Source: an uncultured Pirellulaceae bacterium
GTDB lineage: Bacteria; Planctomycetota; Planctomycetia; Pirellulales; Pirellulaceae
Length of the DNA stretch: 64,000 nt
Reading direction: 5' to 3'
Assembly (NCBI GenBank): GCA_964411445.1
Contig: CAYPLE010000004.1
Span: 28,447-92,446 of the forward strand
Shown here: in pieces, positions 1,018 to 23,603 of the stretch
Layout: every line of letters begins with the position of its first letter
Position numbering within the stretch: position 1 is the stretch's first letter
Position numbers and translations under genes: made by a program
Notes under the pieces: model-generated
The model's input: only the letters and a program-made list of their open reading frames with translations
Databases searched by the model: none
Told to the model about the DNA's origin: nothing

Positions 1018-1049
1018 CCTCCCACCTTCCGATTCCCGCGAGATTCACG

Positions 1050-5487: not shown

Positions 5488-8400
5488 CTATGAGCGCGTT
5501 GCTAACGAAGCCCGAAGCAAATTGGCGAGTCGCGACACCTGCGTCTTGGCAAGCATGTTTGCATGAGCACCGGGAACTTCGAGCACTGTCAGTTCGTTAT
5601 CGGCAAAATACTCACTCCAACCAGCAGTAGCATCGCCGCCGCTTCCTCCAGACGCACGTATTTGTGCTCGGTAAAGCGTTGCTGGTCCGAGTGACGCCTG
5701 CGGACAGTAGTCAACGAGGGCTTGCATATTGCTCGCCGCAACTCGGCCATAGTCGGCATCCAAGTCGATGATTCGGCGGATTTTCTCGTGCAGTGAAATC
5801 AAGCCCATTCGATGCAAAACCGCTAGGCGACCAGCGCGAATGCGTTCTTGCACGTACGGTAGCCACTCACGCCATGGAAGCGTTGACAGGTACTTGCCGT
5901 GAAAGGCAAGGCTCTGCAGAGTCGAAGCAGGGAGCGGCACCCCCGGCGTGGCGTCAATCATCGACAGTGAGACGGAACAACCAGCTCGCCATAGTTGCTG
6001 GGCCATTTCATAGGCTAGAACGCCTCCGAAGGAAAACCCGGCAATATGATAGGTGCCTGTCGGCTGAGCACTCAACAGTCTTGCAACCTGTTGTTCAGCA
6101 AGCTGCTCGAAAGAGCACGGCGAATCGTCATCGGGCAGAAGCCCAATTGGCTCCAGCCCGAAAACGTTACAGTCCTTTTCCAGTGCTGCGGCAAGGTCAC
6201 GGAAATTCAAGAAGTGCCCATCAATACCTGGCAAGCAGTAAATATTGGGCTTTGGCACTCTTTCACCATTGCTCGGTGAGCTTGCGAGCCGAATAACGCC
6301 CGTCGTAGCTTCAGCACTTGATTCACTGGGACGCACAGCACGAACAAACTGCTGCAATGTAGGATTTGCGACCAGAATGGACATCGAAACTTTGATATCC
6401 AGTGAAACCCTAAGTCGAGCGAACATGATTGCTGCCGCCAAAGAGTTGCCGCCACAGTCAAAAAAATTGCTGTTTGCAACAAGTGCGTCTTGACGGAGCA
6501 CCGTTCTCCAAATTGCTGAGACTGAAGCCGTCAACGGATCACTTGTACGAGTGGCGGGTTCTTGCGGAGAGACCGCAGTTTCCACCGGAGGAGCCGTGCA
6601 CAAGTGCTGATTCAATAGCCGTTGGCGGTCAATTTTTCCATTGACAGTCTTTGGCAGCGTTTCGCAAACAACAATTTGCGCCGGAACCATGTACTCCGGC
6701 AAGGCATTCATCATCTCCTGTCGCAGATTCCTACCAAGCGTTTCTGCGGCTGTCGCACCTTGCGAAAGTGATTTTGCCTGCACGAACGCAATCAAGTGTG
6801 TGGCATGGTATTGCTTATCTGTGACAACTGCGGCTTCCCGGATTTGCTCCTGATTGAGCAACCACGCTTCGACTTCGCCTGGCTCGACACGGTTTCCACG
6901 TACCTTCACCTGGTCGTCGTTCCTGGACACGAACTCCAGTTGGTCATCCCAATTGATAAAACACACGTCTCCAGAACGGTACCACCGCTGGCTTTCGAAG
7001 CCATCCAACTTGCGATCTACAAATTTTTCATTCGCCTCACGATGTCCACCTAAATAGCCTTTGGCAATGCAGGCTTGACCAATCCATAGCTCGCCTTGAA
7101 CACCTTGAGGCACCGGCACTCCGCAATCGTTGACGACAGCCAACTCGGCGTTCTGAATTGGGCGCCCGATTGGCGGCAACGATGGCCAATTGCGTGGTGA
7201 ATCAGGAAGAGAATAGGATGTCACTACGTGCGATTCGGTCGGACCATACTGATTGATCAATCGGCATTGTGAGTTGGCATCGAAGAAACGCTTCACAGAT
7301 TCCGAAATCACCAGTCGTTCCCCCGCGGTGATGACTTCCCGCAAATGGGACTTGGCGCCGCGTTGATCTGCAATGTCACACAGCCCCTTCAAAGCGACGA
7401 AAGGCAAGAACACTCGTTCGATGCGCTCTTGAACAATCGTATCCCAGAGGGCATTCAGATCGCGGTGCGTTGCCTGATCAACCAAATGAAGGGTCCCGCC
7501 GCCGGCGAGTGTTGTCAGAATTTCTTGGAACGACACATCGAACCCAAGCGAAGCGAACTGAAGCGTTCGCGTTTGGGCCCAATTTGAATTCTCAGCAAGT
7601 TGCCAATCTACCAAGTTTTCGATGACTCCGATGGGCATTTCCACGCCCTTTGGAATGCCCGTCGAACCTGATGTGAAAAGGACATAGATTAGATCGCTGG
7701 CGAGGTGTTCATGGATCATCGGCACCGGCAACGTGCGCCCAAATGCATCTGCAACGTCGATTTCGCGCACGCCTTGGATCTGACAAGGCGTATTGACGAG
7801 CACGCTGGTCACGTTCGCACATTCAACGATTTGTCGCTTGCGTTCCGAGGGCAAGACGGGGTCAATTGGCACACAAACCCCACCAATCTGAATCGTCCCC
7901 AGCACGGCAGCCAGCATCTCTGGAGAACGCGTCAAGTGGAGGCCCACCAAATCGCCAGCCTCGACGCCTGCTGCCTCAAGCTCGCCCGAGACGCAGTCCG
8001 CAGCAGCCCACAGCTCTTTGTAGTCGTAATCCCGTCCAGCAAAACAGACTGCTGCTTGCTCGCTGTGACGAGTTGCAATAGCTTTGATCCGCCGAACCAA
8101 CGAAGGCTGGTTGGTTTGGCTCGAGACCGGCAGATCACTATGGCAAGCGTCCCAAGCAGCGGGCTGCCGTTCTAGCCCAATCTCGGTCGCCAGCACGCCA
8201 GGATCACCGATTAGCAGATCAAGTACGGTTTGAAAATGCCTTGCAAATTGTGTGATGCGCGCTTCTGCAAATTGCGATGCATCATACTCCAATTCAATCC
8301 GAATCTGATCAATTGCCTGTGAAGCGGCCACCAGCAGGTCAAACTTCGCCGTACCGGTATGTAAATGCTTTGGCGTAACCTGCGATGCACCAAAGGTTGG

Positions 8401-11400
8401 AGGCGTCTGCTCATCTTCGAGGACAAACAGAACGTTGAAGAGATCTTGCTGCTTTGCTCCTGCGGCGTCGCATGCAGACTTCATACGTTCGTATGAAAAC
8501 TCTTGGTGCGACAGAGCCTCAACGGTCGCCTGATGCACCAAATCACAGTATTCCTCAATGGTCGTGGAGGGGCTCAACTGAGTGCGTATTGGCAGCACGC
8601 CAATGAAGTAGCCGATTGTCGCCTCAATTTCGGCTCGGTCGCGTGTTGAGACCGCGGTGCCAACAACAATGTCATCCTGGTTGCTGTAACGGTGCAAGAG
8701 GATCTTGAGCACGCTCAACAGCAGCACAAAAGGCGTCGTTTGCTGCTCAGTTGCTCTCTTCCGCAACTTCTCCAGCCGAGTACCATCGATGACGAAGTCG
8801 AACACCCTGCCGACGCTCGCTAAGGGAACGTCTTGCGAAAAGTCGCTTGGAAGCGTGACTGACGCGGGCATCTTGTCGAGCTTTCTCAGCCAGTACTCCT
8901 CGCAAGCAATCTGGTGCGCTGTCCCACCTTCGGAAACTTCGCGCGACTGACCAAGTGAGTAGTCGAGATACTGCATCGGAGGAATAGCAAGCTGGCATTC
9001 ACGACCTTCAGTGTAAGCTGCATAGTACTCCGACAGCTCGCGATTGAAGATACCGATAGAGTGTCCATCAACGGCAATATGGTGAAACACCAAGACCAGC
9101 AGTGCTTCTTCGTCGTCACCGACAAACAACGCGGCCCTGAACGGATTCTCACTACTCAGTTCAAACGGTTGTCGAACAAATTTCTGTACTGCGGACTGCT
9201 TAGCAAGTGCTTCGCCTGCCCCGTTCTGCAGATGCCTTACCGTCAACACGCCTTCCACAGACGGCTGAACGTGCTGCAAGAGCTCACCGCTGCCACTGGA
9301 TGCAAATCGATATTGTGTACGCAGTACTTCATGCCGCGCGATAATGCTGTCGATCGCAAACGTTAGTGCTGCTGAATCGATCTCGCCGTGAACAGCAAAC
9401 CCAAGTGGCACGTTGTAGCGTGAACCGTGGTGGTCAATCTGGTTCACCACCCACATTTGCTGCTGTTGATAGGAAAGCGGCGCACTCGTCGGCCTCGCCT
9501 CTACGCTTGCTACCCCACCGCTGTCGTTGGCGCCTGACGCTTTTTCGCATGCATTGGAAAGCCAATCTGCGATCCAACTTAGCGGACGATTTCTATCCAA
9601 CAATTGCTGGTAGGGCAACTGTGCACCAAACGCCTGCCGAATACGAGCAATTAGCGTCAGTGCCGTCAGAGAAGTACCCCCGACGCAATAAAATGTATCA
9701 TTCAGGTCAACCGTGCTCGTGTTCAACAATTCAGCCAGCGTTTTGCTGAGCCATTGATGATATTCGGATTCGCCAAGCAGATCGTTAGCATGCAACACGC
9801 CCGCAGTTTTCCGACGAGACGGCAGTGGAAGCTGCTTGTAATCCACTTTACCATTGGGTGTCAGTGGCCAAGCATTCAGAGCGATGATCTCTGAGGGTAC
9901 CATATACGCTGGCAACCGCTTCGATAGTTGCCGGACCAATTCGCCGACATCCAAATTGCCTTCGGCCGATTCGCCTGTGTTTTCCTCGGTCCGACGCACA
10001 TAGGCAATCAGTCGATCGCCCGCGTCACCGGAATCGATGGTTAGGACCGCGTCTGAAACACCAGGTTGCTTCGCGAGTTCGCTTTCGATTTCTCCTAGAC
10101 CGATGCGATAGCCACGTATCTTGACTTGACGATCGCGACGGCCCAAGAACTCTAAAACGCCGTCTTCTGTGTAGCGACACAGATCACCTGTCTTATACAG
10201 CAGCCCGGAGTCTTCGAAAGGATTGTCGACGAATTGTTCGGCTGTGCGATCGGGTTGATTGATGTACCCCAACGCCACCCCGACTCCAGCTATACACAGC
10301 TCTCCAGCCTCGCCACGGGGCGTCTGGCACATTGATTCATCGACTACGTAACATCGCTGGTTTAGCAGAGGACGCCCATAGGGAATGCTCTTCCAAGTCG
10401 CTTCAACAGAATCGATCTCATGGTAGACACTCCAAATAGAAGCCTCGGTGCTACCTCCCAGGGACCAAATCTCTGCATCTGGCAGGAACTCGCGGATCCG
10501 ACCAGGCAGGCTAAGTGGGATCCAATCACCACTCAGCATGACCGTCCGTAAACTTGAAAGCAAATGTGCGTTTTCGCAAGCTGTAACCAGGATGTCCATC
10601 AACGCCGGAACAGTGTTCCAAACGGTCACTTGATGTGCCTGGACGAGTTGTTGCCAGGCGAGCGGATTACGCGATTGCTCACGATTCGGCAAGACAACCG
10701 TTCCGCCAGCCGCGAACATGCCAAAGATGTCGTACACCGACAGATCAAACCCGAGGGCCGATAGACATAGCGTCGCGTCGGCGGCGGTGATTGAAAAGCG
10801 ATGGTTGACGTCCTGAATGGTATTGGCTGGTCCGCGATGGCCGAGCATCACCCCCTTGGGCTGTCCGGTTGACCCAGAGGTAAACAACACGTATGCCAGG
10901 CTATCCGCATCGGGAACGGGCAACTCCACTTCGCTATTGAGAGCACCTTCAACAGCGGTGATGACCTCCGGATTCACGAGCTCAACGGTGTGAACAAATT
11001 CGCACGGTAGACTGCGGCCGAGACAATAACGTGCCTGAGCGGTTTCTGCAAAATAGGCCAGTCTGTCTGCTGGAAGCTGCGTATCCAGCGGAAGGTAGGC
11101 CGCGCCAGCTTTGAGTACGGCAACGATGGACAGAATTGATTGCGCAGTGTGATCGGCGACGACGCAAACGACTTCGCCACGACGGACACCGTGTTTGACC
11201 AAGTGCCGCGCGATGATATCGGAACGCAAATCTAGTTCCGCGTAGCTAAGCGACTCCTTGCCACAGACAACGGCAGTCGAATTTGGGGTTCGTTGTGCAG
11301 AGCGTCGAACAAAGCAAGCTAACGTTGGATCGTCTTTCCAATCAAAATCGGTCGCGTTCCATTCTGGATCGGGCAGGGTGGTGGCAGACTTACTTTCTGC

Positions 11401-11553
11401 AGCGTGACCGATCGCGAATCCGCTGGCCAATTCATCGGCAGTGTCAGCATCACATGGCCCCATAAGATTTCGACACACTGCCTCTGTACCATCGTCTTGT
11501 TCAGGCGATGGAAGTCGCAATGCATCGAGTCGTGTTTGCGGAGATTGTGACAC
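5488..11553 (-). CDS. Bimodular non-ribosomal peptide synthetase, A-T-C-A-T-TE (predicted Cys then Pro-like)
   Basis: Two A-domain cores (YVLFTSGSTGQPKG, YVLFTSGSTGIPKG; YKTGD and YRSGD; NGKVD and NGKID). Two carrier motifs (GGTSL ~9670, GGNSL ~6450), C-domain HHIAVDG (~9070), TE GFSFG (~6035) and C-terminal His (GAHANM). GTG start at 11553 is the longest option. Confidence 0.95.
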   Translation of the reverse strand: MSQSPQTRLDALRLPSPEQDDGTEAVCRNLMGPCDADTADELASGFAIGHAAESKSATTLPDPEWNATDFDWKDDPTLACFVRRSAQRTPNSTAVVCGKESLSYAELDLRSDIIARHLVKHGVRRGEVVCVVADHTAQSILSIVAVLKAGAAYLPLDTQLPADRLAYFAETAQARYCLGRSLPCEFVHTVELVNPEVITAVEGALNSEVELPVPDADSLAYVLFTSGSTGQPKGVMLGHRGPANTIQDVNHRFSITAADATLCLSALGFDLSVYDIFGMFAAGGTVVLPNREQSRNPLAWQQLVQAHQVTVWNTVPALMDILVTACENAHLLSSLRTVMLSGDWIPLSLPGRIREFLPDAEIWSLGGSTEASIWSVYHEIDSVEATWKSIPYGRPLLNQRCYVVDESMCQTPRGEAGELCIAGVGVALGYINQPDRTAEQFVDNPFEDSGLLYKTGDLCRYTEDGVLEFLGRRDRQVKIRGYRIGLGEIESELAKQPGVSDAVLTIDSGDAGDRLIAYVRRTEENTGESAEGNLDVGELVRQLSKRLPAYMVPSEIIALNAWPLTPNGKVDYKQLPLPSRRKTAGVLHANDLLGESEYHQWLSKTLAELLNTSTVDLNDTFYCVGGTSLTALTLIARIRQAFGAQLPYQQLLDRNRPLSWIADWLSNACEKASGANDSGGVASVEARPTSAPLSYQQQQMWVVNQIDHHGSRYNVPLGFAVHGEIDSAALTFAIDSIIARHEVLRTQYRFASSGSGELLQHVQPSVEGVLTVRHLQNGAGEALAKQSAVQKFVRQPFELSSENPFRAALFVGDDEEALLVLVFHHIAVDGHSIGIFNRELSEYYAAYTEGRECQLAIPPMQYLDYSLGQSREVSEGGTAHQIACEEYWLRKLDKMPASVTLPSDFSQDVPLASVGRVFDFVIDGTRLEKLRKRATEQQTTPFVLLLSVLKILLHRYSNQDDIVVGTAVSTRDRAEIEATIGYFIGVLPIRTQLSPSTTIEEYCDLVHQATVEALSHQEFSYERMKSACDAAGAKQQDLFNVLFVLEDEQTPPTFGASQVTPKHLHTGTAKFDLLVAASQAIDQIRIELEYDASQFAEARITQFARHFQTVLDLLIGDPGVLATEIGLERQPAAWDACHSDLPVSSQTNQPSLVRRIKAIATRHSEQAAVCFAGRDYDYKELWAAADCVSGELEAAGVEAGDLVGLHLTRSPEMLAAVLGTIQIGGVCVPIDPVLPSERKRQIVECANVTSVLVNTPCQIQGVREIDVADAFGRTLPVPMIHEHLASDLIYVLFTSGSTGIPKGVEMPIGVIENLVDWQLAENSNWAQTRTLQFASLGFDVSFQEILTTLAGGGTLHLVDQATHRDLNALWDTIVQERIERVFLPFVALKGLCDIADQRGAKSHLREVITAGERLVISESVKRFFDANSQCRLINQYGPTESHVVTSYSLPDSPRNWPSLPPIGRPIQNAELAVVNDCGVPVPQGVQGELWIGQACIAKGYLGGHREANEKFVDRKLDGFESQRWYRSGDVCFINWDDQLEFVSRNDDQVKVRGNRVEPGEVEAWLLNQEQIREAAVVTDKQYHATHLIAFVQAKSLSQGATAAETLGRNLRQEMMNALPEYMVPAQIVVCETLPKTVNGKIDRQRLLNQHLCTAPPVETAVSPQEPATRTSDPLTASVSAIWRTVLRQDALVANSNFFDCGGNSLAAAIMFARLRVSLDIKVSMSILVANPTLQQFVRAVRPSESSAEATTGVIRLASSPSNGERVPKPNIYCLPGIDGHFLNFRDLAAALEKDCNVFGLEPIGLLPDDDSPCSFEQLAEQQVARLLSAQPTGTYHIAGFSFGGVLAYEMAQQLWRAGCSVSLSMIDATPGVPLPASTLQSLAFHGKYLSTLPWREWLPYVQERIRAGRLAVLHRMGLISLHEKIRRIIDLDADYGRVAASNMQALVDYCPQASLGPATLYRAQIRASGGSGGDATAGWSEYFADNELTVLEVPGAHANMLAKTQVSRLANLLRASLATRS

Positions 11554-11598
11554 AGTTGGGCGACAGTGTGATAGGCTGCGGTCGACTGTTCCAGGATG

Positions 11599-12306
11599 CT
11601 ATGGGGCCACGTGCCGGTACACGGTTCCCAGCACCGGAATTCCTAGTTTTGTGTATTTTGCGACCGCTTCATTTAGCTGGACCGAGGTTGTACGTTTTCC
11701 GTAGACAAGCACGATGATCCCGTCCAAACAGGCAGCGATGGCCGTGGTGCTGTGTTCTGACATGGGCGGCAAATCAATGATCAGCCAATTCGAGTCGTCT
11801 TGAATTTCAGAAAGCGCGGCCTCTAAAGCTAGGTCAGCAGAATCATCTAACTCGCGTGGTAGTTTGCCATTGCCCGCAGGAACTAGTGAGAGTCCTGCCG
11901 ATTTTGACGGACGCACCACCTTTTCAACGTCGCAGCGTCCCAAAATCGCATCGGCGAATCCGAGAGCTCGCTCGCCAGTGCTACCCCGCTTTCCTTCGGA
12001 GTCTCCTTGGAAGGCAAAGTCCGCTGCAAAACTTGCTTCCATCGAGGGGCTGGCTGTACCAGCTTCCACGAGGGTCGTGCTGCGGCGAACGATCTTGACA
12101 GCAGCCAAGGCTAAGTTGGACGCCAGCGTGCTGACTCCCGCGCCCCGATCCAAACTCGTCACGCCCAACCGGAATGCATTTCCCGTTCGTGAAGAAACAT
12201 ATTCTGCGCGTCGAGCTGCCGCTTCCAGGATGGGAACGTACTGATAAAGCAGCGGATGGATCGCTTTGGCAGGGGCAAGCTGTAGGTATTGTTCTCCAAC
12301 GATCAT
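11599..12306 (-). CDS. CpsD/CapB (Wzc C-terminal) BY-kinase-like P-loop protein, degenerate
   Basis: 'GVTSLDRGAGVSTLASNLA' at the Walker A position, 'LIIDLPP' Walker B, C-terminal 'LGIPVLGTV'. ATGA overlap with the upstream GumC-like gene. Walker A Lys and the C-terminal Tyr cluster are missing. Confidence 0.8.
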   Translation of the reverse strand: MIVGEQYLQLAPAKAIHPLLYQYVPILEAAARRAEYVSSRTGNAFRLGVTSLDRGAGVSTLASNLALAAVKIVRRSTTLVEAGTASPSMEASFAADFAFQGDSEGKRGSTGERALGFADAILGRCDVEKVVRPSKSAGLSLVPAGNGKLPRELDDSADLALEAALSEIQDDSNWLIIDLPPMSEHSTTAIAACLDGIIVLVYGKRTTSVQLNEAVAKYTKLGIPVLGTVYRHVAP

Positions 12307-13856
12307 CCGACGTCTGCCGTTTCCTCTGACTCCTCGCTGGCCAGAATTCGCTTCTTCGGTAGATGGGACACTTCGCCAAGATACGGTGTATCGAGTCGTT
12401 CCAAATGCGTCGGTGATTGTACGCGGCGGTCGCGCAGTTGGAATGCCACAGCCATGAGCATGCTGCTAAATACTGCCAGCGTGAAACCAGCAAACAAAAT
12501 CATTCCAAGCTTAGGACTACTTGGAATTTGTGACACGCTTGGCGGCTGCAAGATACTCAGGTTGGAAAGATTCTCTTCCCCTAGGGCGAGATCGATTCGA
12601 GCCTGTTCGCTGCGACGTGCGTAGTCCAAGTAGGTTGAGTTTGCGAGTTCCAATTTGCGAGTCAACTCAGCCAAGCGAATTCCGTTTTGATTGATTTCGT
12701 TGAGCTGCTCCTTCGCCTGTACGATCTGCTGCGTCAATATGTTATTGCGAGCCGCCAGCGATGATGCGATGGCAACTTGATTCATCAACGCGGACTCCAT
12801 AGATTGACGGTTCTGGTTCAGCCCGACAGTTCGCTGTGTCAGGGCGTCCTCATTTTGCATGGTTGTCTGCGCTGCTTCGATCTGCTCCTTGATTTGCTGC
12901 ACCCGTGGATGCGTGGGCTCGTAGCGGGTGAGCAGCTCTTTTTCGCGAATCTGAAGTGAAAAGAGCTGCTCACGCATCCCTTCGGCAGCACTGCTAGCCA
13001 AGCCTGTCGTTGCCTGCAACTGGACCTCATTGGGCTGAGAAGCCAACAATTCACGACGCGAATCAATCTCGCTTCGCACGCCTTCCAATTCGGAAAGTGC
13101 CGTGAGTTGAGCATTCTCTAGCTGCGAGATTCTTGCAATCTGAAGCTCCCGCTGCTTGTCCAGGTCCGCGACACCAGTCCTGTTCTTGAACTCGAGCATC
13201 TCCTTCTCAAGCCCTTCGACTTGTGCTTTTAGCTGATCTGACTGGGTGATGAAAAAGGAACTGGAGCCGAGCGACTGGTGCACGCGCACGTGTTCAGTGA
13301 TGGTTGCTGAGATGACATGTTCCAACACTTCAGCAGCCAACTCAGGGCTGATGGTCTCGTACCGCAGCCCAACAATCGCTGTGTTGCGAGGTGTATAGAT
13401 TTCGAGTCCCTTCTCGAGCGACTCAATCGCTTTGTCGCGTGGGCTGTCGACGTAGAGCGGGTTGAACGTTTTCACGTAGTCCAAATCGATTGGAAGCTTG
13501 GATTCGGTCTTCGGCTCCGATGATTCTTCTAAGATTTTACCGACGCCGACCGCATCAACGACTCTTTCCAAAACGTTGCGGCTTCGCATCAAGGATTGAA
13601 CCGAGTAGATCTCCTTTTCTCGCGATTCTTGAACTCCAATTGTCTGCCCAGTTGTTGCCGTCGGATCAAGCGCCACCGACTCCTTGCCAAGCCGAACAAA
13701 CACCTGCGCCTCTGAAGTATATTTGTGCTTCGCGACGAAGACGTACGCAATGGTTAGCCCCATAATGAGACTGGCCAAAAAGAGCATCTTCTTTTTATGA
13801 TTGCTGCAGGCGGCGAGCAGATCTAAGCCGTGATGGTGTTCAGTGATATGGCTCAT
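12303..13856 (-). CDS. GumC/Wzc-N family polysaccharide co-polymerase (chain-length determinant)
   Basis: N-terminal TM followed by 'KYTSEAQVFV', a long coiled-coil with 'YEPTHPRV', then 'NLSILQPP...SPK' and a C-terminal TM followed by 'RDRRVQSP'. Sits in a polysaccharide cluster. Confidence 0.88.
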   Translation of the reverse strand: MSHITEHHHGLDLLAACSNHKKKMLFLASLIMGLTIAYVFVAKHKYTSEAQVFVRLGKESVALDPTATTGQTIGVQESREKEIYSVQSLMRSRNVLERVVDAVGVGKILEESSEPKTESKLPIDLDYVKTFNPLYVDSPRDKAIESLEKGLEIYTPRNTAIVGLRYETISPELAAEVLEHVISATITEHVRVHQSLGSSSFFITQSDQLKAQVEGLEKEMLEFKNRTGVADLDKQRELQIARISQLENAQLTALSELEGVRSEIDSRRELLASQPNEVQLQATTGLASSAAEGMREQLFSLQIREKELLTRYEPTHPRVQQIKEQIEAAQTTMQNEDALTQRTVGLNQNRQSMESALMNQVAIASSLAARNNILTQQIVQAKEQLNEINQNGIRLAELTRKLELANSTYLDYARRSEQARIDLALGEENLSNLSILQPPSVSQIPSSPKLGMILFAGFTLAVFSSMLMAVAFQLRDRRVQSPTHLERLDTPYLGEVSHLPKKRILASEESEETADVG

Positions 13857-13920
13857 GATTCAACTTTCAATATTCATTTTCAGTGTCGGTCGCAGGAGAA
13901 CCCCGGTTGAACCTCACTGA

Positions 13921-15123
13921 TCAAATGGCAACTGCCCCGGATGAGGCGTGGTTTAGTATGCTTTTGTTTGCGTCGGAAGTTTCAAAGTGCCCGTTTCCAT
14001 GCAATCGTCCGGCTTGGAATGAATCCCATGCCTTGTCAATAGCTTGCGAGAGCTCTTCCTTGAATCGTTCGGGTCGAAAGTACTCTGATCGCTGGCGAAT
14101 GTAGCCCAGATCCAAGCCTTTCGTAGGCCGCTCAAACTCCTCGACTGCCTCAACAAGCGACTCAGGTGATTGTTCGCGGAAGAAGTAGCCTGTTGCACCT
14201 TCTTGGACCGTTTCCAAACTACCACCGCGTCCGTAGGCAATGACTGGCGTCGCACAGGCTTGAGCTTCCACCGGCATGATCCCAAAGTCTTCCTCGGCTG
14301 CGAACACGAAGGCTTTCGCGTTCTGCATCAGGCTCACAAGTTCCGAGTGAGGACGATAGCCCAACAGTTCAACATTTCCGGGACACGTCGCAGACAATTG
14401 CTTATGCATCGGGCCGTCCCCAACGACAAGCAGTTTTCTGTCGGGCATTTTGCGGAACGCTTCAACAATCAAATCAACGCGTTTGTACGGAACCAATCGT
14501 GAAGCCGCGATGTAATAGTCTGATTTTTCGTAGCACGCAGGAAAAGCATCGATGTCTACCGGTGGATAAACAACGTCTGCCGTCCGTCGGTAGCATTTTT
14601 CAATCCGCCGGGCGATGAAATTGCTGTTGGCCACAAAGTGGTCGACGCGACTGGCGGATGCGTGATCCCAGTTGCGAATGTAGTGCAGCATGGATCGGAT
14701 CATCATGCTGCGGAGCCCCCAAGAGAGGTTCGATTCCCGCAAGTACTGCGCCTGGAATTCCCAAGCGTAACGAATTGGCGTGTGGACGTAGCTGACGTGC
14801 AATTGGTCTGGACCTGTAATGACACCTTTGGCGACAGCATGGTTCGATGACAGAACAACGTCGTACTCCGCAAGATCCCACTGCTCAACAGCCGTTGGCA
14901 TAAATGGAAGGTAGTGTCGTAAGAATCGCTTTGCAAAAGGTAACCGTTGCACGAAAGAAGTTGTCACTTCCTTGCCAGACAAGAAGGCCCGATCCTCATC
15001 GGAGAGAAAGTCTGCGACAGCGAACAGATCGCTCTCTGGGAACATGTTGAGCATCTGCTCAACGACTCGCTCAGAGCCAGCGTAAGTGGTCAACCACTCG
15101 TGAATCACCGCAACTCGATTCAT
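13921..15123 (-). CDS. Glycosyltransferase family 4, WbaZ-like (probable mannosyltransferase)
   Basis: N-terminus 'RVAVIHEWLTTYAGSERV', 'YVHTPIRYAW', and GT4 'EEDFGIMPVEAQACATPVIAY' motif. Confidence 0.9.
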   Translation of the reverse strand: MNRVAVIHEWLTTYAGSERVVEQMLNMFPESDLFAVADFLSDEDRAFLSGKEVTTSFVQRLPFAKRFLRHYLPFMPTAVEQWDLAEYDVVLSSNHAVAKGVITGPDQLHVSYVHTPIRYAWEFQAQYLRESNLSWGLRSMMIRSMLHYIRNWDHASASRVDHFVANSNFIARRIEKCYRRTADVVYPPVDIDAFPACYEKSDYYIAASRLVPYKRVDLIVEAFRKMPDRKLLVVGDGPMHKQLSATCPGNVELLGYRPHSELVSLMQNAKAFVFAAEEDFGIMPVEAQACATPVIAYGRGGSLETVQEGATGYFFREQSPESLVEAVEEFERPTKGLDLGYIRQRSEYFRPERFKEELSQAIDKAWDSFQAGRLHGNGHFETSDANKSILNHASSGAVAI

Positions 15124-16157
15124 GATCCGGTTCCTTCAGAAGAGTGGCTTAGGCCGAGACGCAAATCATCAAGAACCGCTTGAACTAACGACGCAGTGCG
15201 CTGCCAAGAAAACGCTGTACTGCGTTGGAGTCCGTTTTCGATCAACTGTTGTCTGCGTGCCTCATCGCCCAAGACGTGAATGACGCCCGCGGCGATAGCT
15301 TCGCAGTTTGGATCAACCAACTCCGCAGCGTCGCCAGCAATCTCCGGCAGAGCCGTTGCGTTGCTTGAAACAACTGGGGTACCGCAAGCCATGGATTCAA
15401 CCAAAGGAAGTCCAAACCCTTCGTACTCAGACGGCATCACCGTGGCCAATGCGCCGCGGTACGCGGTGGCAAGTTTTTCGTCACCCACAGACCCCAGGAA
15501 AGAAACGTGTTCGGCAACGCCAAATTCGTCGATCGCGCGAGTTGTGGATTCAGCCGCTTGACCGGATAAGATCAAATCAACATCATGATGCTTCCGAACA
15601 AGAGCCAACGCGGCAATCAAGCTGGGCACATTCTTGTGCGGTTTTTGATTTCCGACATACAACAAATATGGCTTGCGTCTGTCGAGCCTATCACCCTGCT
15701 GTGTGAAGGCTTGCCCCACACCGTTGTAGACGACTCTCACACGATCGGGAGCGATTCCTGCCCAACGGACAATTTCGTCTTTGGAGTACTCTGAAACCGT
15801 TAGAACGGCGAATGCCCTGCGAGCGGCAGCGCGAACAACCGTGGCGTAGTAGAGCCGCTTGGCCAATGAAGCTTCAGCCGAATGATGAACGTGGATGAGA
15901 TCGTGGATTGAGAAGACGTAGTTCCGCTTCGAAGCCAATGGCAACGGCAACGGTGCGTTGAAACCAGGCGAAAAGTAACTCAAATTGCTTCGCCAAAGCT
16001 TAACGCCTAGCCGAAGTGCATCCAACGGACTTGTCGGGCTGCCACCCAACGCCTGAGTTTGAACGCCCGACAATCGCGATTGTAATTCCGAAGCGAAGCG
16101 ACCAATGCCATGCTGACCAATCCAACGCTGGTCGAATAGTACGTTCTGGTTCACCAT
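15120..16157 (-). CDS. Glycosyltransferase family 4 (MtfB/WbaW-like)
   Basis: 'LFDQRWIGQHGIGRF', 'YVGNQKPHKN' and 'EGFGLPLVESMACGTPVV'. I chose ATG 16157 because it overlaps the upstream wzy stop (ATGGTGA). Its stop overlaps the next ATG (ATGA). Confidence 0.88.
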   Translation of the reverse strand: MVNQNVLFDQRWIGQHGIGRFASELQSRLSGVQTQALGGSPTSPLDALRLGVKLWRSNLSYFSPGFNAPLPLPLASKRNYVFSIHDLIHVHHSAEASLAKRLYYATVVRAAARRAFAVLTVSEYSKDEIVRWAGIAPDRVRVVYNGVGQAFTQQGDRLDRRKPYLLYVGNQKPHKNVPSLIAALALVRKHHDVDLILSGQAAESTTRAIDEFGVAEHVSFLGSVGDEKLATAYRGALATVMPSEYEGFGLPLVESMACGTPVVSSNATALPEIAGDAAELVDPNCEAIAAGVIHVLGDEARRQQLIENGLQRSTAFSWQRTASLVQAVLDDLRLGLSHSSEGTGS

Positions 16158-17425
16158 GCCCGACTCCTTGGCGTTTGTAGCAACAGTCCGCCAGTCGCGG
16201 CGACACAAACTGCAAGGATCAAGAACGTGAACGAACCGGCTGAGAAGTAGTAAGTTCGCCAGAGCTCAAAGAATCCGTACAACACAATGCATCCGATCAT
16301 GCACAGCAAATTCTCAGCTCGCCAAAAATAGCTGCCGATGGTCGACATACAGAAGCTTACCCAGGCGATCACCGGGAAGGCTAGGAAGCCGAGATCGCCG
16401 TACATTTCAACCCAAGCTGAGTTGGTGGTCAGTGTTTGGTCGACGTCAACTTGATCCAAATACCACTGCTCGCCAACTCCACCAGAGTTGTCAGACACCT
16501 TCTGCGAAGCTGGATGAAGGAAAGTTGGCGTTAGGTACTTGATCAAATTCCGAGCCGTTCCACGCTGAGGTTTTTCTGCAGCAATTCTTGCAACTCCCAC
16601 ACTAGCTTGGACCGGGGCGCCCAGATAGCGTTGAACCTCAAGATACGTGATTGCGATCGGACTGCGGACGCCAAAGTACTCCCGATAGCTCCCTGCGCTT
16701 CGTACCCAAGTGAATGCGACCAGACAAACGGCCAGAGCGGCAGCAGCACAACCAATCGCCCTAGTCGACACTCGAGAGAAAGCACCAAAGCGAACAGCAA
16801 TGCCTCCGCTAAACACAACTGCTTGTACCAGCAGAATCCTCGCAGAGATTGCGGCGGCGGCAACGAGAAGCACTAGATTGAGGACGTCCAGCCAACTCAT
16901 TTGGCGCAAGAAAACGATTCGGTAGATCGCATATCCGCCAGCGAGAGAAGCCGTGTAACGCAATGAATAGAGATGGTTGTAGTTTTCGTAGAGGGCTTCT
17001 TTCACCAAGTTGAACTGCTGTGTTTTGACCAGTTCGACGATGGATACACCACCGCGAATTGCAGCCAACCAGGCCAAGGCAACACCAGCGGCGGCAACGG
17101 CCGAAAGCACTTTGTAGAACTGTTCGCTCGACAGGCGTCCCTGCTTCATAACGCCAAGCTGGGGAAGGCTGCGAGCCAAGAATTGCCCAGCCGCCGCGCT
17201 CGCTGCGATCGTTCCGTACCAAACGACTAAGATGGTCAAACTTGCCAAACTCAGGTGCTCGCGAACGTGATAGCCGGCGGCGCCTTCCATCGACGGACTC
17301 AACCAGAGAAAGAAACCAACTATGACGAATGGGCCAAAAACCACACTGGGTTGCCAAACGACCGCCGCCAGACTTGACAACCAAGCTGGGCCGCTAGTTT
17401 CAACGTTTGGACTAATGGAGGCCAT
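16151..17425 (-). CDS. Probable Wzy-type oligosaccharide repeat-unit polymerase
   Basis: About 10 hydrophobic segments, a late periplasmic loop followed by 'TTNSAWVEMYGDLG', and position between flippase and GTs. Start is uncertain: ATG 17425 chosen, but the ORF extends to 17872 into the flippase. Confidence 0.7.
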   Translation of the reverse strand: MASISPNVETSGPAWLSSLAAVVWQPSVVFGPFVIVGFFLWLSPSMEGAAGYHVREHLSLASLTILVVWYGTIAASAAAGQFLARSLPQLGVMKQGRLSSEQFYKVLSAVAAAGVALAWLAAIRGGVSIVELVKTQQFNLVKEALYENYNHLYSLRYTASLAGGYAIYRIVFLRQMSWLDVLNLVLLVAAAAISARILLVQAVVFSGGIAVRFGAFSRVSTRAIGCAAAALAVCLVAFTWVRSAGSYREYFGVRSPIAITYLEVQRYLGAPVQASVGVARIAAEKPQRGTARNLIKYLTPTFLHPASQKVSDNSGGVGEQWYLDQVDVDQTLTTNSAWVEMYGDLGFLAFPVIAWVSFCMSTIGSYFWRAENLLCMIGCIVLYGFFELWRTYYFSAGSFTFLILAVCVAATGGLLLQTPRSRAW

Positions 17426-17553
17426 GCTGCTGAGACGTTCCGGCAATGGAATGTGGAGCGAGAAAGGGGCAACGGGCGAACAACTCGACTGCTCGTGTTG
17501 AACGAAACTCAGTCTAGTCAGAATGTTGGGCAACTCGCGAAAGCCGTCGGCGA

Positions 17554-19086
17554 CTAGGCACTTTTCCCAAGCTTCGCTTTTACCGTAGTCAGCAATTCCG
17601 GAAACTTCAGCAGCAGCCGGACATCGCAAATAGTCCATACGCGAATCATTTTCCGCGCCATCAGGCTGAACAGTATGCACTGGAGGGAAACCACTGTAGA
17701 CCAAGCAATTGCCAGCCCCACAGCTCCGAATCGTTGGGTTAAGAACATGCCGCAGCACAACAGCAAAACGGAAGTGATGCAGTTTACAGCCAAGGCCGAA
17801 CGCTGGTTCCCAGACATCATCAGAGTCAGCTCGGCCGCTCCGACGAACACGAAGATGACTTGGCCAATGCACAGAATCCGCAAAATCGTTGCAGACTGCC
17901 CGTAGAATTCTCCGAACAGCAACGCGAGGATTTGTTCAGGGAACACTGCCAGCGGCAACCACACCAACACGGCTGGAATCGCAGCCATCGTCGCCGCCGA
18001 GCGCAAGATCTTCTGTAGCTCGGGCAGACGCCCCTGGGCGCGAAGCTCTGCAATGGAAGCAACCACAGTCAGATTGACGAGCTGCATTGGCATGCCAATC
18101 AACAACATTAGCCGCCGTGCTGCTCCGTAAAGCGCCAAGTCCGCATGTTCAATGGTGGCCCCAGCGATCCACACATCGGCTTGACCGGTGACGTATGAAA
18201 GGGCTTGAGTCAGTACGAGCGGAAACGCTACGGCCAGCAAGGTTACGAGCCGCAGATTCGCTTCCGCGTGCTGCTCGGGCGAAGAATGCTGGCTCAGCCG
18301 CTGTTGGTGACTCAGCTCCGCCAGCCGACGTTGGCTAATTCGGTGAACGGAAGCTACCGCGATGGGTACAACAATCAACATACTCAGACTGCTGAAAATC
18401 ATCACACTCATCAGGGAAGGCTGAAAGAGCACGTGCAACAGAATCGCCGATAGGATGAACAACAGATTGCATATGGGCCCGCCGAATTGCCCGGTTAGCA
18501 AGATCGATAGTCTAGAATCGTGAAACGACCGCAGGAGACTACCGCTCAGTTGCAAAATTGCTGAGGCAACAACGCCGACCGCAACGATCGGACCGAGAGT
18601 TATCGCGTCAGCTATTCCGAAAAGCGACTCGCCAAAGAGCATCAAGAACGCCGCGCACACACCGCCTCCGGCTAGGATGGCAACGGTGGCAACTACGGCT
18701 CCAATGCGTAACGATCGCTGGGCTTGGCCGAATTGCCCCAGCCCAATTTGTTCAGAAATGAAACGCACGAGAGCAGCGTTTAAGCCGAACATTGCCAGGA
18801 TGGATGCAAACGTCAGAATCGTGGCCAACAGAAAAAATACGCCGACGTCCTCAGGCGGCAATATGCGTGCCAGCAGCACGTTGATGCCGATCGCGGTGGC
18901 AATTCCAAGAAGTCTTCCGCCAACGACCCAGATCGCTTCGCTGGCCAAACGCTTCCCCGTGCCGACGTCGTGCGATGCGGTAATTGGCTTTGCAGCATCA
19001 TCTTCACTGCGCGGCAATTCAGCGCGACCGGTGACGGTTGCGACTGAAGATGTCGGGCTTGATGGAAGACCAGTCAAACTGCTCAT
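17554..19086 (-). CDS. Wzx-type polysaccharide flippase (MOP superfamily)
   Basis: About 12-14 TM segments with 'LLARILPPEDVGVF', 'FGLNAALVRF', 'ALYGAARR', 'LFGEFY' and 'FGAVGLAIA'. Start taken at ATG 19086. Confidence 0.88.
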   Translation of the reverse strand: MSSLTGLPSSPTSSVATVTGRAELPRSEDDAAKPITASHDVGTGKRLASEAIWVVGGRLLGIATAIGINVLLARILPPEDVGVFFLLATILTFASILAMFGLNAALVRFISEQIGLGQFGQAQRSLRIGAVVATVAILAGGGVCAAFLMLFGESLFGIADAITLGPIVAVGVVASAILQLSGSLLRSFHDSRLSILLTGQFGGPICNLLFILSAILLHVLFQPSLMSVMIFSSLSMLIVVPIAVASVHRISQRRLAELSHQQRLSQHSSPEQHAEANLRLVTLLAVAFPLVLTQALSYVTGQADVWIAGATIEHADLALYGAARRLMLLIGMPMQLVNLTVVASIAELRAQGRLPELQKILRSAATMAAIPAVLVWLPLAVFPEQILALLFGEFYGQSATILRILCIGQVIFVFVGAAELTLMMSGNQRSALAVNCITSVLLLCCGMFLTQRFGAVGLAIAWSTVVSLQCILFSLMARKMIRVWTICDVRLLLKFPELLTTVKAKLGKSA

Positions 19087-19166
19087 GGGCGAGGAGTATT
19101 TCTTGTCCGTGAGTGGAGAAATTGTGCAGAATGCAGATCGTGTTAGCGGTCCCGGACAGCGACTGC

Positions 19167-20609
19167 TCAGTAAGCTCCCTCTCTCAGCAGTACGACACGA
19201 ATGGTGACCACCAAGATGCATATGTCGAGCCACAGGGACCAATTGCGGACATAGTAGCTATCCAGTTCAACACGTTGATCGTAGGTCGTATTGTTGCGTC
19301 CAGACACTTGCCACAGTCCGGTAACGCCAGGGGTGACCCTTAGATATAAATCCAAGGCATTTCCATACTTATCAGCCTCGGCTTGCACGATTGGCCGAGG
19401 TCCCACAAGACTCATTTCGCCCACGATTACGTTCCATATCTGCGGTAGCTCGTCCAGGCTCGTCTTTCGCAGCAAGCTGCCAATCCAAGTGACTCGGGGA
19501 TCATTCTTTAGCTTGTGATCTGCTTCCCACTCGCGACGCATCTCTTCGTTTTCATTCAAATACTGCTTGAGCACCTGATCTGCGTTCGGAACCATCGTTC
19601 GGAACTTCCACGCTCGGAAGACTCTGCCGTGTTTGCCGATCCGTTCTTGACCGTAGAAAATCGGCCCCCTGGACGTGAACCGAACCAGAGCGCACAGGCA
19701 CAGAAAGAGCGGTGACAATAAGAGCATCACCATCACGGCGACTGCGACGTCCGTGGCTCGCTTCATCGCAAGCAACCACCCCGAAGCAACGATCCCCTTG
19801 TACTGAATTCCAGATATACCAACAGTGTCAAACACGCTCGCGTGCTGCGTTGGCAGGGTTAGCGCGTCCTGGACGACGAGCGTATTGGGTACTCGGCGGG
19901 AAACATAGGATGCTAGCTCGCGAACTTCTCCGCGATGCTCTTCGGCCGCGAAGACAAACCAACTGACTTTGTTCGAACGAATCAACGACTGAATACTGTC
20001 ACGCTTCGCTTCTTCGAAAATGCAGATCGGGTTCAACCCAAGGCTAGGCTTAGACTTCAGCCGTCGGAAAACGTTCAGTGCCAGTTCGCCATCGCCGAAG
20101 ACAATGGTCGGCGCTGGCCACCAATTCGTCTTACTCAGAACTCCGCGAAGTGCTGCCCTGGCTACGGGAAGGCAAAACGTAAGAGCGATCCACAGACTAG
20201 CAAGCCCGAGAAACACCAGGGGACTTGAGTCGCCCATGAATTTGGAAACGCCAAAAGCGAGCACCAAAATCGAGATCACAATCGTGCTCAGGCGGACTTC
20301 TTCCGTAGAATTCCAGACTGCACCGGAGTGGAGGCCAACGATACTATTGCTGAGCAGCAGCACCAGGGCTACAACCGGAATCTCTAAACCGGTCAACACG
20401 GGATGAATTGCGTTGGCAATAGCCGTGATGGCAAAGAAACACGCCAAGTCGAGTGCGCCGAAGCACAGGCGATTGAGGATTCGACGCGTCGCATCGCTAA
20501 CCGTAGAATGCTTGAGCGCCGTTCGCGATGCGGGCTCACGAGCTGAGACTTGCTCGCCAACAGACGGCGAAACCGCGTATTCTTGCGGCATCAGATCTTG
20601 GGAATTCAT
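19167..20609 (-). CDS. wbaP: Undecaprenyl-phosphate hexose-1-phosphate transferase, WbaP-like (initiating enzyme)
   Basis: N-terminal TMs and a C-terminal bacterial sugar transferase domain: 'KRATD', '[11 protein letters not shown]', 'KFRTM', 'KNDPRVT', '[11 protein letters not shown]', '[12 protein letters not shown]'. Start at 20609 or 20591; sugar specificity is inferred. Confidence 0.85.
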
Positions 20610-20917
20610 TAAAAAGTGGTCCAGCTTGGGGCTATCTGGAAAGTGCGGACTACGAACACGGACTACCCAAAATCTGTGGACGAATGACGTATTGCTGCCG
20701 CTTCGCTCCTCGCTGAAGATTCTCATGGGGGCTGAACAACGGCTACGTAGAGTCAAGCTAATTAGCAAGATTTCAACATCAATAGTCAGCTTCGGTGTTG
20801 CCACAATTTGCCGAGGGTTTACCGACCAACTTCCACTTGAGAGTGCAACTTTGCGGCTTCTACGGCCTTTGCTGTTCCTTCAGCGCGACCCAAGAGGTAT
20901 TGCTCGCCGCCCATTTC

Positions 20918-20967
20918 GGGGGCTTCCCATTGACCTTTCCCGTAAGGTCTACTTGCCGCGAGCCCCC
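20918..20967. other. Two-stem GC-rich hairpin upstream of the polysaccharide/NRPS operon
   Basis: GGGGGCT (20918-20924) pairs with AGCCCCC (20961-20967), enclosing GACCTT (20932-20937) / AAGGTC (20944-20949). Function unknown. Confidence 0.4.
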
Positions 20968-21168
20968 CGGAAAATTTGAAGGGCGGCTGTTCCGGCAGAG
21001 CCTCCCTGCGAGGGCGAATCAGAATTTGAGAGGCGCACGTCACGTCAGCTTTTGATCACGGATGCCCGAGCGTTAAACTCTGATTGCCCGGCCTCGCTGC
21101 CAGGATCGAACCCCATCCTTCTATCACTGTCTCAAATATCTGCCCGACATACTGGGTTGGAAGTCATC

Positions 21169-21636
21169 ATGAAACGAAAACGCTGGCTGATCCCAGTCGC
21201 TTTGCTGCTGACCGCTTACTTAGGAGTTCAAGTCATGAATGCGACGTCCAAGCCGCTGCTCGCCCTGGGAGTAACGAACGGCAAGTTGGCAGCTTGCCCC
21301 GATAAGCCGAATTGTGTTTCTTCGCAAGCGACCGCGAATGAACACAAGATTGCTCCGCTTCAGTTCGAAGGCGAAGCTAATGCGGCCTGGACGGCGCTGA
21401 AAAGCGTCGTTGCAGCCTATCCGAGAGCCAAGGTTGTCAGCGAGCAGGACAACTACCTGCGCTGTGAATTCCGAACCTGGATCATGCGTTACGTCGACGA
21501 CGTAGAATTTTTGATGGACGCGGACCAATCCGTCATTCACGTTCGCTCCGCGTCGCGCATTGGCTATTCCGACTTAGGCGCCAATCGAAAACGCATCGAA
21601 CAACTTCGCACCGCCTTTGACAGCACGCTGGACTGA
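21169..21636 (+). CDS. DUF1499 domain-containing protein
   Basis: N-terminal TM, 'LAACPDKPNCVSSQ', 'YVDDVEF' and 'HVRSASRIGYSDLGANRKRIEQLR'. ATG at 21169. Confidence 0.9.
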   Translation: MKRKRWLIPVALLLTAYLGVQVMNATSKPLLALGVTNGKLAACPDKPNCVSSQATANEHKIAPLQFEGEANAAWTALKSVVAAYPRAKVVSEQDNYLRCEFRTWIMRYVDDVEFLMDADQSVIHVRSASRIGYSDLGANRKRIEQLRTAFDSTLD

Positions 21637-21757
21637 TGACAACTTCGAGTGGCCTGAATCCGTTGACGACACTCCACAGAGGGGCTACCATCTACACCCC
21701 ATGTCGATGACGTAAGGTGATCAGAACGAAAGCGCTCAAGAGGATTCAGACTGATGT
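21623..21757. repeat. 135-bp direct repeat, copy 1
   Basis: Matches 23469-23603 by manual alignment: 127 bp identical, one mismatch (A21750 vs G23596), then 7 more matches. Includes the last 14 nt of the DUF1499 gene. Confidence 0.97.
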
Positions 21758-23367: not shown

Positions 23368-23468
23368 TCTGACAATGTGGTGTAACTGTTGAAGGCTTCG
23401 GTTCTTTCGGAGGCGGGATGCCGCTATCTCTTGGCCGTGAACGTCGAACTCGCTTTAAAGATTGGCCT

Positions 23469-23603
23469 GCACGCTGGACTGATGACAACTTCGAGTGGCC
23501 TGAATCCGTTGACGACACTCCACAGAGGGGCTACCATCTACACCCCATGTCGATGACGTAAGGTGATCAGAACGAAAGCGCTCAAGAGGATTCAGGCTGA
23601 TGT
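23469..23603. repeat. 135-bp direct repeat, copy 2
   Basis: Offset 1846 bp from copy 1. Contains the ATG (23600) of the downstream gene and an internal inverted repeat GCCTGAATCC (23498-23507) / GGATTCAGGC (23588-23597). Confidence 0.97.

Follow-up and report, generated by a model that had tools for sequence, protein, structure and literature searches.

The stretch of DNA analysed here (the window) comprises 64,000 nucleotides of contig CAYPLE010000004.1 from an uncultured Pirellulaceae bacterium. It carries a run of eight consecutive open reading frames (ORFs) on the minus strand, which ORF mapping and Pfam and NCBIfam scans, and for the third gene position and topology, assign to a WbaP-type initiating transferase, a Wzx-type flippase, a Wzy-like membrane protein, two family GT4 glycosyltransferases, a Wzz-type co-polymerase, a protein related to bacterial tyrosine kinases (BY-kinases) and a large non-ribosomal peptide synthetase (NRPS). 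A sequence-only reading had described this run as a Wzx/Wzy polysaccharide operon with the NRPS as its terminal gene. Recomputation from the ORF coordinates, with a check of start and stop codons, left the run and its gaps unchanged (80, 128, -7, -4, 64, -4 and 45 nt); seven of the eight genes start with ATG, and the NRPS gene with GTG. A terminator-site scan likewise found no hairpin on the minus strand between the kinase-like gene and the NRPS gene (11553-11599), and the neighbour beyond the NRPS gene is indeed convergent, with the stop codons of the two genes 40 nt apart. Terminator-like and promoter-like sites of the region are no commoner than in shuffled sequence. The positions of genes and domains are collected in Table 1.

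Table 1. Genes, domains and borders of the NRPS-containing polysaccharide cassette (window positions; aa, amino acids; scores in bits)
Feature	Position	Strand	Basis
WbaP-type initiating polyprenyl-phosphate hexose-1-phosphate transferase, 480 aa	19167..20609	-	PF02397 222 bits; TIGR03022 WbaP_sugtrans
Wzx-type flippase (MOP superfamily), 510 aa	17554..19086	-	PF01943 53.8 bits vs cut-off 28.2
Polytopic membrane protein, 424 aa, putative Wzy polymerase; marker of the cassette type	16151..17425	-	Position and topology
GT4 glycosyltransferase 'a', 345 aa	15120..16157	-	PF00534 119.6 bits
GT4 glycosyltransferase 'b', 400 aa	13921..15123	-	PF00534 99.4 bits
Wzz-type polysaccharide co-polymerase (PCP), 517 aa, without kinase domain	12303..13856	-	PF02706 32.2 bits vs cut-off 25.5
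Degenerate BY-kinase-like P-loop protein, 235 aa	11599..12306	-	TIGR03018 4e-11, TIGR01007 2.5e-9, both far under cut-offs
Dimodular NRPS, 2021 aa, A1-T1-C-A2-T2-TE, last gene of the unit	5488..11553	-	Pfam: AMP-binding x2, PP-binding x2, Condensation x1, Thioesterase x1
A1 adenylation domain, aa 64-580, predicted Cys	9814..11364	-	Code DLYNMSLIWK
T1 carrier domain, aa 590-665	9559..9786	-	Motif GGTSL
C, ordinary condensation domain, aa 691-1121	8191..9483	-	PF00668 270 bits; motif HHIAVDGHS
A2 adenylation domain, aa 1150-1650, predicted Pro or close analogue	6604..8106	-	Code DVQFIAQVVK
T2 carrier domain, aa 1670-1745	6319..6546	-	Motif GGNSL
TE, type I thioesterase, aa 1765-2021	5491..6261	-	PF00975; nucleophile elbow GFSFGG, C-terminal GAHANM
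ThuA-DUF7133-cytochrome c fusion, 1465 aa	1050-5447	+	Gene convergent with the NRPS gene
Non-coding stretch, 442 nt, between the divergent DUF1499 gene and the WbaP gene	20610..21051	.	

Of the Wzx/Wzy pathway, the scans identify an initiating transferase, a flippase and a co-polymerase. WbaP scores 431.5 bits against the initiating-transferase model TIGR03022 (cut-off 403), and Wzx also matches the MatE and MurJ families of Pfam. Across orthologous cassettes (described below) the proteins are 44-49% (WbaP), 52-57% (Wzx) and 54-58% (GT4 'a') identical; the best-conserved cassette protein is GT4 'b', with 68-73% identity and a ratio of nonsynonymous to synonymous substitution rates (dN/dS) of 0.035-0.046. 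The cassette contains no gene for an OPX (Wza) exporter, and nine matches to PF02563 (Poly_export) are found elsewhere in the genome. It is also without an exporter, regulator, MbtH or tailoring gene of the kind found in small-molecule clusters, and the NRPS gene is its sole non-core gene. The non-coding stretch upstream of the WbaP gene is likely the promoter region of the cassette; no sigma-70-like site was found on its minus strand.

The gene between wzx and the GT4 genes had been labelled wzy. Position and topology of the encoded protein fit the label, and the protein is 61-68% identical across genera, but it has no Pfam or NCBIfam match even at E = 10. Its AlphaFold2 (AF2) model is all-helical with a mean pLDDT of 61, and a Foldseek comparison of this mediocre model with the PDB gave no significant match (best E = 0.07; TM-score 0.26 with WaaL, 7TPG).

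The NRPS has all the features of a modular type I enzyme: two adenylation domains, two carrier domains with the GGxS serine, a condensation domain with HHxxxDG and a TE with GxSxG. A search of a database of 5.8 billion proteins returned 12 full-length orthologues of ~2000 aa, 40-42% identical to the NRPS and of the same architecture. The genomic context of every one was examined, and all 12 are encoded directly after Wzz. The named carriers are mostly Pirellulaceae (Rosistilla oblonga, Rosistilla carotiformis, Rhodopirellula sallentina, Aporhodopirellula aestuarii and strain SH139) and the rest are metagenomic. As far as the contigs reach, the conserved gene order is (WbaP)-Wzx-unknown protein of 420-440 aa-GT4-GT4-Wzz-NRPS.

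To avoid circularity, we used the Wzy-like protein as an NRPS-independent probe. In genome contigs this probe detected seven loci, each with the NRPS gene directly after that of Wzz. Among 401 Pirellulaceae genomes, 11 from 4 GTDB genera encode an orthologue of the Wzy-like protein (E < 1e-237), and the NRPS gene is adjacent in all 11. With that of the window, the total is 18 loci. The NRPS gene directly follows the Wzz gene in 17 of the 17 others, far more than chance would give; surprising as it is, the linkage is solid. Among the searched proteins and genomes we found neither an NRPS orthologue away from the cassette nor a cassette of the same type without the NRPS. The junctions between the Wzz and NRPS genes of orthologous loci measure -8, -1, -1, 13, 13, 14, 48 and 51 nt, lengths that are typical of operons. 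The flanking genes vary by locus and include sulfatases with rhamnosidases, Tad pilus genes, PNPOx and GDPD. Since the genes outside differ between loci, the cassette itself is the conserved unit.

Conserved synteny in related genomes had been named beforehand as the observation on which the proposed association would stand or fall. The linkage was found wherever the cassette occurs. In the 24 species of the window's own GTDB genus we found no NRPS orthologue (best identity 33%) and no close Wzz orthologue (at most 34%), so that the linkage is missing there because the entire cassette is missing. A phylum-wide search with the TE gave only three weak matches (31-35% identity), which belong to NRPSs that are not beside exopolysaccharide (EPS) genes. 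Because TE relatives are weak and located away from EPS genes, the linkage is specific to this cassette family and not a general habit of planctomycetal NRPSs.

Individual loci deviate from the common order. The Rosistilla loci L046, L055, L058 and L062, from three species, start at Wzx without an adjacent WbaP gene, and a methyltransferase and an FAD oxidoreductase are encoded upstream in its place; the initiating transferase of these strains must be encoded elsewhere in the genome. In the window, the deviation is the gene inserted between those of Wzz and the NRPS, which had been termed BY-kinase-like. The product, a P-loop protein, aligns to the kinase domain of a fused Wzc. Its Walker A motif reads GAGVST where the fused Wzc has GDGKST, with the lysine replaced by valine; Walker A' reads EAG instead of DAD; and the C-terminus, VYRHVAP, contains a single tyrosine and no tyrosine cluster. 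The protein thus lacks the defining features of BY-kinases (Walker A GxxxxGK[ST], A' DxD, tyrosine cluster), and all its family scores lie below the curated cut-offs. The gene is confined to the window's copy and missing in every orthologous cassette with a visible Wzz/NRPS junction. Judged from these motifs, its product is probably catalytically dead, an add-on outside the conserved unit and outside the mechanism considered below; it looks like a captured dead BY-kinase domain inserted between Wzz and the NRPS.

The NRPS and glycan genes have diverged together. In 13 loci, the pairwise identities of the NRPS and of the concatenated glycan proteins are correlated with r = 0.93 (78 non-independent pairs), and the major clades agree between FastTree phylogenies of the two sets. 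In both trees the window's copy stands out as the most divergent, with identities of ~60% (glycan proteins) and 42% (NRPS). In five locus pairs, dN/dS is 0.10-0.18 for the NRPS versus 0.03-0.13 for the glycan genes. The NRPS ORF is intact, and specificity codes, the histidine motif of the C domain, both carrier serines and the GxSxG of the TE are conserved in 13 orthologues. Because of this co-divergence, the low dN/dS and the conserved catalytic motifs, the NRPS is an old, selected and integral part of the cassette and not a passenger.

We therefore consider it highly improbable that the linkage is without function, with the NRPS hitch-hiking on a mobile polysaccharide island. Such a history would suit the patchy occurrence of the cassette (11 of 401 family genomes, and one genome only in the window's genus) and the break in same-genus synteny exactly at the NRPS side. 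A neutral passenger of 6 kb would, however, decay or vanish over such divergence, whereas this 6-kb gene has remained intact in all 18 loci; purifying selection has kept its catalytic motifs, and its divergence parallels that of the glycan genes. That the NRPS belongs functionally with the polysaccharide unit, as the sequence-only reading held, is well supported by the conserved adjacency, the co-divergence, the purifying selection and the near-zero or overlapping Wzz/NRPS junctions.

One pair of loci departs from the common history. Between Rosistilla carotiformis (L058, genome G240) and Rosistilla sp. (L062, genome G172), the synonymous divergence (dS) of the NRPS gene is 0.28, and that of five neighbouring glycan genes 1.25-2.2; protein identity is 91% for the NRPS and 81% for the glycan proteins. 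It would seem that a recent swap between the two species replaced the NRPS segment in the same slot, apart from the glycan genes.

The substrates of the NRPS were predicted from specificity codes extracted by motif position, with the positions taken from the GrsA numbering. The A1 code has a canonical variant, DLYNLSLIWK, in one orthologue, and both this and the window's DLYNMSLIWK are among the catalogued signature sequences of Cys-activating domains (PMC12283262). For A2, the code across orthologues is DVQF[IVM]A[HQ]V[AV]K, and the combination of Val236 and Gln239 marks 59 of 71 Pro-activating domains (PMC12283262). Among solved structures, A1 is closest to LgrA-A2 (Gly), BmdB (Cys) and PchE (Cys), which places the domain in a Gly/Cys clade. 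As LgrA-A2 is the top PDB match, glycine was considered as the A1 substrate; it is less likely, since at positions 236, 239, 278 and 301 the code fits Cys and not the Gly code, DILQLGLIWK.

The C domain is most closely related, among solved structures, to those of Txo1/Txo2 and TycC. Thiazoline chemistry was considered and set aside: no heterocyclization (Cy) domain is present, and the sole condensation-type domain, with ordinary C-domain relatives, has HHIAVDGHS and not DxxxxD. Since this domain is ordinary, no thiazoline is expected. The NRPS has no epimerization (E) domain. The product is thus predictable from the domain sequences, and the predicted enzyme-bound species is L-Cys-L-Pro-S-T2, with Pro or a close analogue in second position. 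The genome contains two matches above cut-off to PF01648, the family of the phosphopantetheinyl transferases (PPTases; contigs C72 and C51).

The N-terminus of the NRPS was also inspected. Residues 1-63 (window 11364-11553) are present but unconserved in orthologues (11-25% identity), and an alternative in-frame ATG lies 90 nt downstream of the annotated start; its use would lengthen the gap to the kinase-like gene to 135 nt. This extension of ~60 aa before A1 ends in a 'WN.T...W.DD.CLH' motif, of the type that precedes A domains following a C domain. It may be what is left of an upstream domain since lost, or may serve in docking.

In sequence, the matches of the TE in the PDB include the TEs of AB3403, NocB, EntF and Pks13; the AF2 model (pLDDT 75) has those of AB3403, NocB and Pks13 as top fold matches, with TM-scores of ~0.6. 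By sequence and modelled fold it is thus a canonical type I thioesterase. Orthologues agree better in the TE core (0.61-0.64 identity) and in its lid (0.55-0.58) than in the C domain (0.50), and the lid is conserved to the same degree as the A-domain cores. The fold was also considered as a clue to the acceptor, but does not discriminate, being equally near the TEs of AB3403, NocB, Pks13 and fatty acid synthases.

We hypothesize that the dipeptide is transferred to the polysaccharide while it is being assembled. WbaP and the two GT4 enzymes would build an undecaprenyl-pyrophosphate-linked repeat unit of about three sugars at the cytoplasmic face of the membrane. The NRPS would charge T1 with L-Cys and T2 with L-Pro (or a close analogue), and the C domain would join the two residues to Cys-Pro-S-T2. 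The TE serine would then take over the dipeptide and pass it to a hydroxyl (or amine) of the lipid-linked repeat unit, filling the role that acetyl-, pyruvyl-, sulfo- or methyltransferases have in ordinary Wzx/Wzy loci. Wzx would flip the peptidylated unit, the Wzy-like protein and Wzz would polymerise it, and the polymer would be exported via OPX proteins encoded elsewhere in the genome. The outcome would be a surface polysaccharide with an N-terminal cysteine, bearing a free thiol and a free amine, on each modified repeat.

A tailoring role of the NRPS fits its position as the only non-core gene of the cassette, and a sister cassette in other Pirellulaceae provides a comparison. Like ordinary Wzx/Wzy EPS loci, the sister cassette shares with that of the window the initiating phosphoglycosyl transferase, Wzx, a polytopic polymerase candidate, GT4 enzymes and a PCP. 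It occurs in two other genera (L063, L064 and L065), where Wzy is 30-34%, GT4 'a' 42-45% and GT4 'b' 38-39% identical to the window's proteins, and it has no NRPS. In L064 (G185:C1:388100-408000) the order is fused Wzc (with an intact P-loop), WbaP, GT4 'b', Wzx, sulfotransferase, Wzy, GT4 'a' and FkbM methyltransferase, a gene content that suggests a sulfated and methylated EPS. The slot of these ordinary modifiers would be filled by the NRPS in the cassette studied here.

The main alternative is that the NRPS makes a free product, co-expressed with the polysaccharide but not attached to it: the linear dipeptide Cys-Pro or the diketopiperazine cyclo(Cys-Pro), possibly as a disulfide. Such a small molecule could, for example, act in signalling, in redox chemistry or metal binding, or as a metabolite associated with the matrix. 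An A-T-C-A-T-TE enzyme is a complete, self-sufficient and release-competent line, and the nearest relatives of its canonical TE include hydrolysing and cyclising enzymes. The missing exporter is not decisive here, because a small neutral diketopiperazine needs none, and the separate recombination of the NRPS segment in Rosistilla would also be compatible with an autonomous product. On the other hand, co-regulation alone rarely fixes a gene in one slot, with Wzz junctions that overlap or measure 13 nt. This slot has been held down to ~42% protein identity, in at least 4 genera and in differing surroundings, with no orthologue found off the cassette and no such cassette found without the NRPS. 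We regard a free product as rather unlikely, and the evidence favours, though not decisively, dipeptide transfer onto the repeat unit over release of a co-expressed peptide.

Several observations nevertheless weigh against transfer to the repeat unit. X-Pro dipeptidyl thioesters readily release themselves as diketopiperazines, a C-terminal proline favouring this route, and free cyclo(Cys-Pro) would be a natural product of such an architecture. The TE, no closer to transferring enzymes than to hydrolysing or cyclising ones, shows no sign of a sugar acceptor in sequence or model. As the cassette encodes no amino-sugar or deacetylase function, the dipeptide would have to be attached via a labile O-ester linkage or through an amine of other origin. 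Both specificity codes are predictions, and the closest solved relative of A1 activates Gly. The identification of the 424-aa protein as the Wzy polymerase, made from position and topology alone, is unproven. Finally, the independent exchange in Rosistilla points to some evolutionary autonomy of the NRPS. Transfer of Cys-Pro by the TE to the lipid-linked repeat unit seems to us plausible, though somewhat short of an even chance, and we propose more tentatively still that Pirellulaceae with this cassette make a Wzy-dependent surface polysaccharide whose repeats bear an NRPS-made Cys-Pro graft with free thiols and amines.

The acceptor might also be something other than the repeat unit, such as a cap or primer at the polymer end, the lipid carrier, another envelope lipid, or a protein such as Wzz itself, in which case the modification would tune chain length or anchoring rather than adorn the chain as a whole. 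The NRPS gene abuts that of Wzz, and not the GT genes, in every locus, often with overlapping stop and start codons, and AlmEFG, which acts on lipid A, is a known case of carrier-dependent lipid aminoacylation. However, polymerisation and chain-length control are periplasmic. The NRPS, by contrast, depends on cytoplasmic ATP and on a PPTase, and its sequence contains neither a signal peptide nor a membrane segment. The cassette encodes no MBOAT or LPLAT lipid acyltransferase, and nothing specific points to a cap. We consider an acceptor of this kind improbable.

Transfer to the repeat unit would have relatives among known systems. It would fall under the carrier-dependent decoration of envelope polymers, within the Wzx/Wzy pathway. 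DltABCD esterifies teichoic acids with D-alanine and AlmEFG the lipid A of Vibrio cholerae with glycine, and both follow the logic proposed here, in which an amino acid is activated, loaded on a phosphopantetheinyl carrier and transferred to a surface molecule. They use stand-alone adenylation and carrier proteins, a single residue and a membrane acyltransferase (the MBOAT protein DltB, or AlmG). In the cassette, two modules, a C domain and a TE are fused in a single NRPS, which belongs to neither system; Pfam and NCBIfam scans found no MBOAT or LPLAT family match in the cassette proteins. The DltA models match the NRPS as they would any generic A domain: TIGR01734 stays below its cut-off (504 versus 559.85), and the looser NF003417 is passed (519 versus 476).

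A mechanistic precedent for the TE is that of Pks13, an acyltransferase that loads an acyl chain (mycolate) onto a hydroxyl of trehalose (PMC11649247). It too is the C-terminal type I TE of a thiotemplate megasynthase, and its structures are among the top fold neighbours (TM-score ~0.6, E ~5e-13). Pks13 differs in being a polyketide synthase with a mycolate acyl group and a free disaccharide as acceptor, and its identity to the window's TE (20-23%) is not above that of hydrolysing or cyclising TEs; it is a precedent, not evidence. Delivery of a prolyl unit to a sugar is known from lincosamide synthetase, in which a proline derivative on a carrier protein is coupled to an amino sugar (PMC4351081). 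There, a proline-type A domain and a carrier (LmbC/LmbN-CP/LmbD) are used, but the product is a small-molecule antibiotic, the acceptor is a thio-octose amino sugar processed by mycothiol/ergothioneine chemistry, and neither a TE nor Wzx/Wzy is involved. AB3403 from Acinetobacter baumannii (PDB 4ZXH), a free-standing C-A-T-TE protein, is the best full-length match for the TE in both sequence and fold. With its single module, other genomic context and 22% TE identity, it is uninformative on a glycan acceptor.

Another likeness concerns the EPS gene set associated with XrtA/PEP-CTERM systems, in which an adenylate-forming family (TIGR03098, 'acyl-CoA ligase, exosortase A system-associated') is tied to EPS loci; the window's Wzz and kinase-like proteins score best against XrtA-associated models. 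All scores lie far below the cut-offs (TIGR03098, 414 versus 592.35 bits; TIGR03007, matched by Wzz, 111 versus 278.85; TIGR03018, 42.6 versus 230.65), and no search for an exosortase was made. The XrtA set has a lone ligase where the cassette has a true multidomain synthetase, and the accessory set is itself functionally uncharacterised; Haft 2006 (PMC1569441) makes no mention of the ligase/carrier set. A full-text literature search gave no report of an NRPS working in a Wzx/Wzy locus, in planctomycetes or elsewhere, in agreement with the statement of the sequence-only reading that no example of the arrangement was known.

The known tailoring of Wzx/Wzy polysaccharides comprises acetyl, pyruvyl, succinyl, sulfate and methyl groups and single amino acids, all added by small dedicated enzymes. 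If the proposal is correct, it would add a new acceptor for NRPS off-loading, a lipid-linked glycan, and a new glycan decoration, a thiol-bearing dipeptide. The enzyme would be the first demonstrated multimodular NRPS to act in glycan tailoring, with a TE that uses a lipid-linked oligosaccharide as acceptor. By forming disulfides, the resulting 'polymeric thiol' could set into an adhesive gel resembling a holdfast; alternatively, it could bind soft metals or act as an oxidant buffer on the cell surface. The case could further bear on the attachment of planctomycetes to algal surfaces and on aggregate formation. Should the product instead be a free Cys-Pro diketopiperazine, it would still rank among the first NRPS products of planctomycetes with a link to a defined physiological module. 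The case is tractable, as the cassette has seven genes and the predicted product is easily assayed (Cys, Pro and polymer-bound thiol). Cultured carriers are Rosistilla oblonga, Rosistilla carotiformis, Rhodopirellula sallentina SM41, Aporhodopirellula rubra CECT 8075, Aporhodopirellula aestuarii and strain SH139.

The surroundings of the cassette in the window were compared with the nearest genome of the same genus (L069, genome G015). Window positions 1-5447 are syntenic with this genome, the GFO/IDH/MocA oxidoreductase being 91% and the ThuA-DUF7133-cytochrome c fusion 66% identical, and the synteny stops exactly at the NRPS end of the cassette. Because same-genus synteny breaks off at this point, the cassette sits in a variable region. 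Nothing matching window positions 5.4-36 kb was found in the 20 kb examined of this genome, and a clean insertion site was considered and dropped, as no empty site could be defined from it. The GC content shows no anomaly, and no tRNA genes were found at 1-30 kb of the window. Approximately 1 kb upstream of the promoter side of the cassette lies a pair of direct repeats of 142 nt (21616-21757 and 23462-23603), which are 97% identical and 1846 nt apart, and which enclose a DUF1559 prepilin-type gene and a small convergent ORF.

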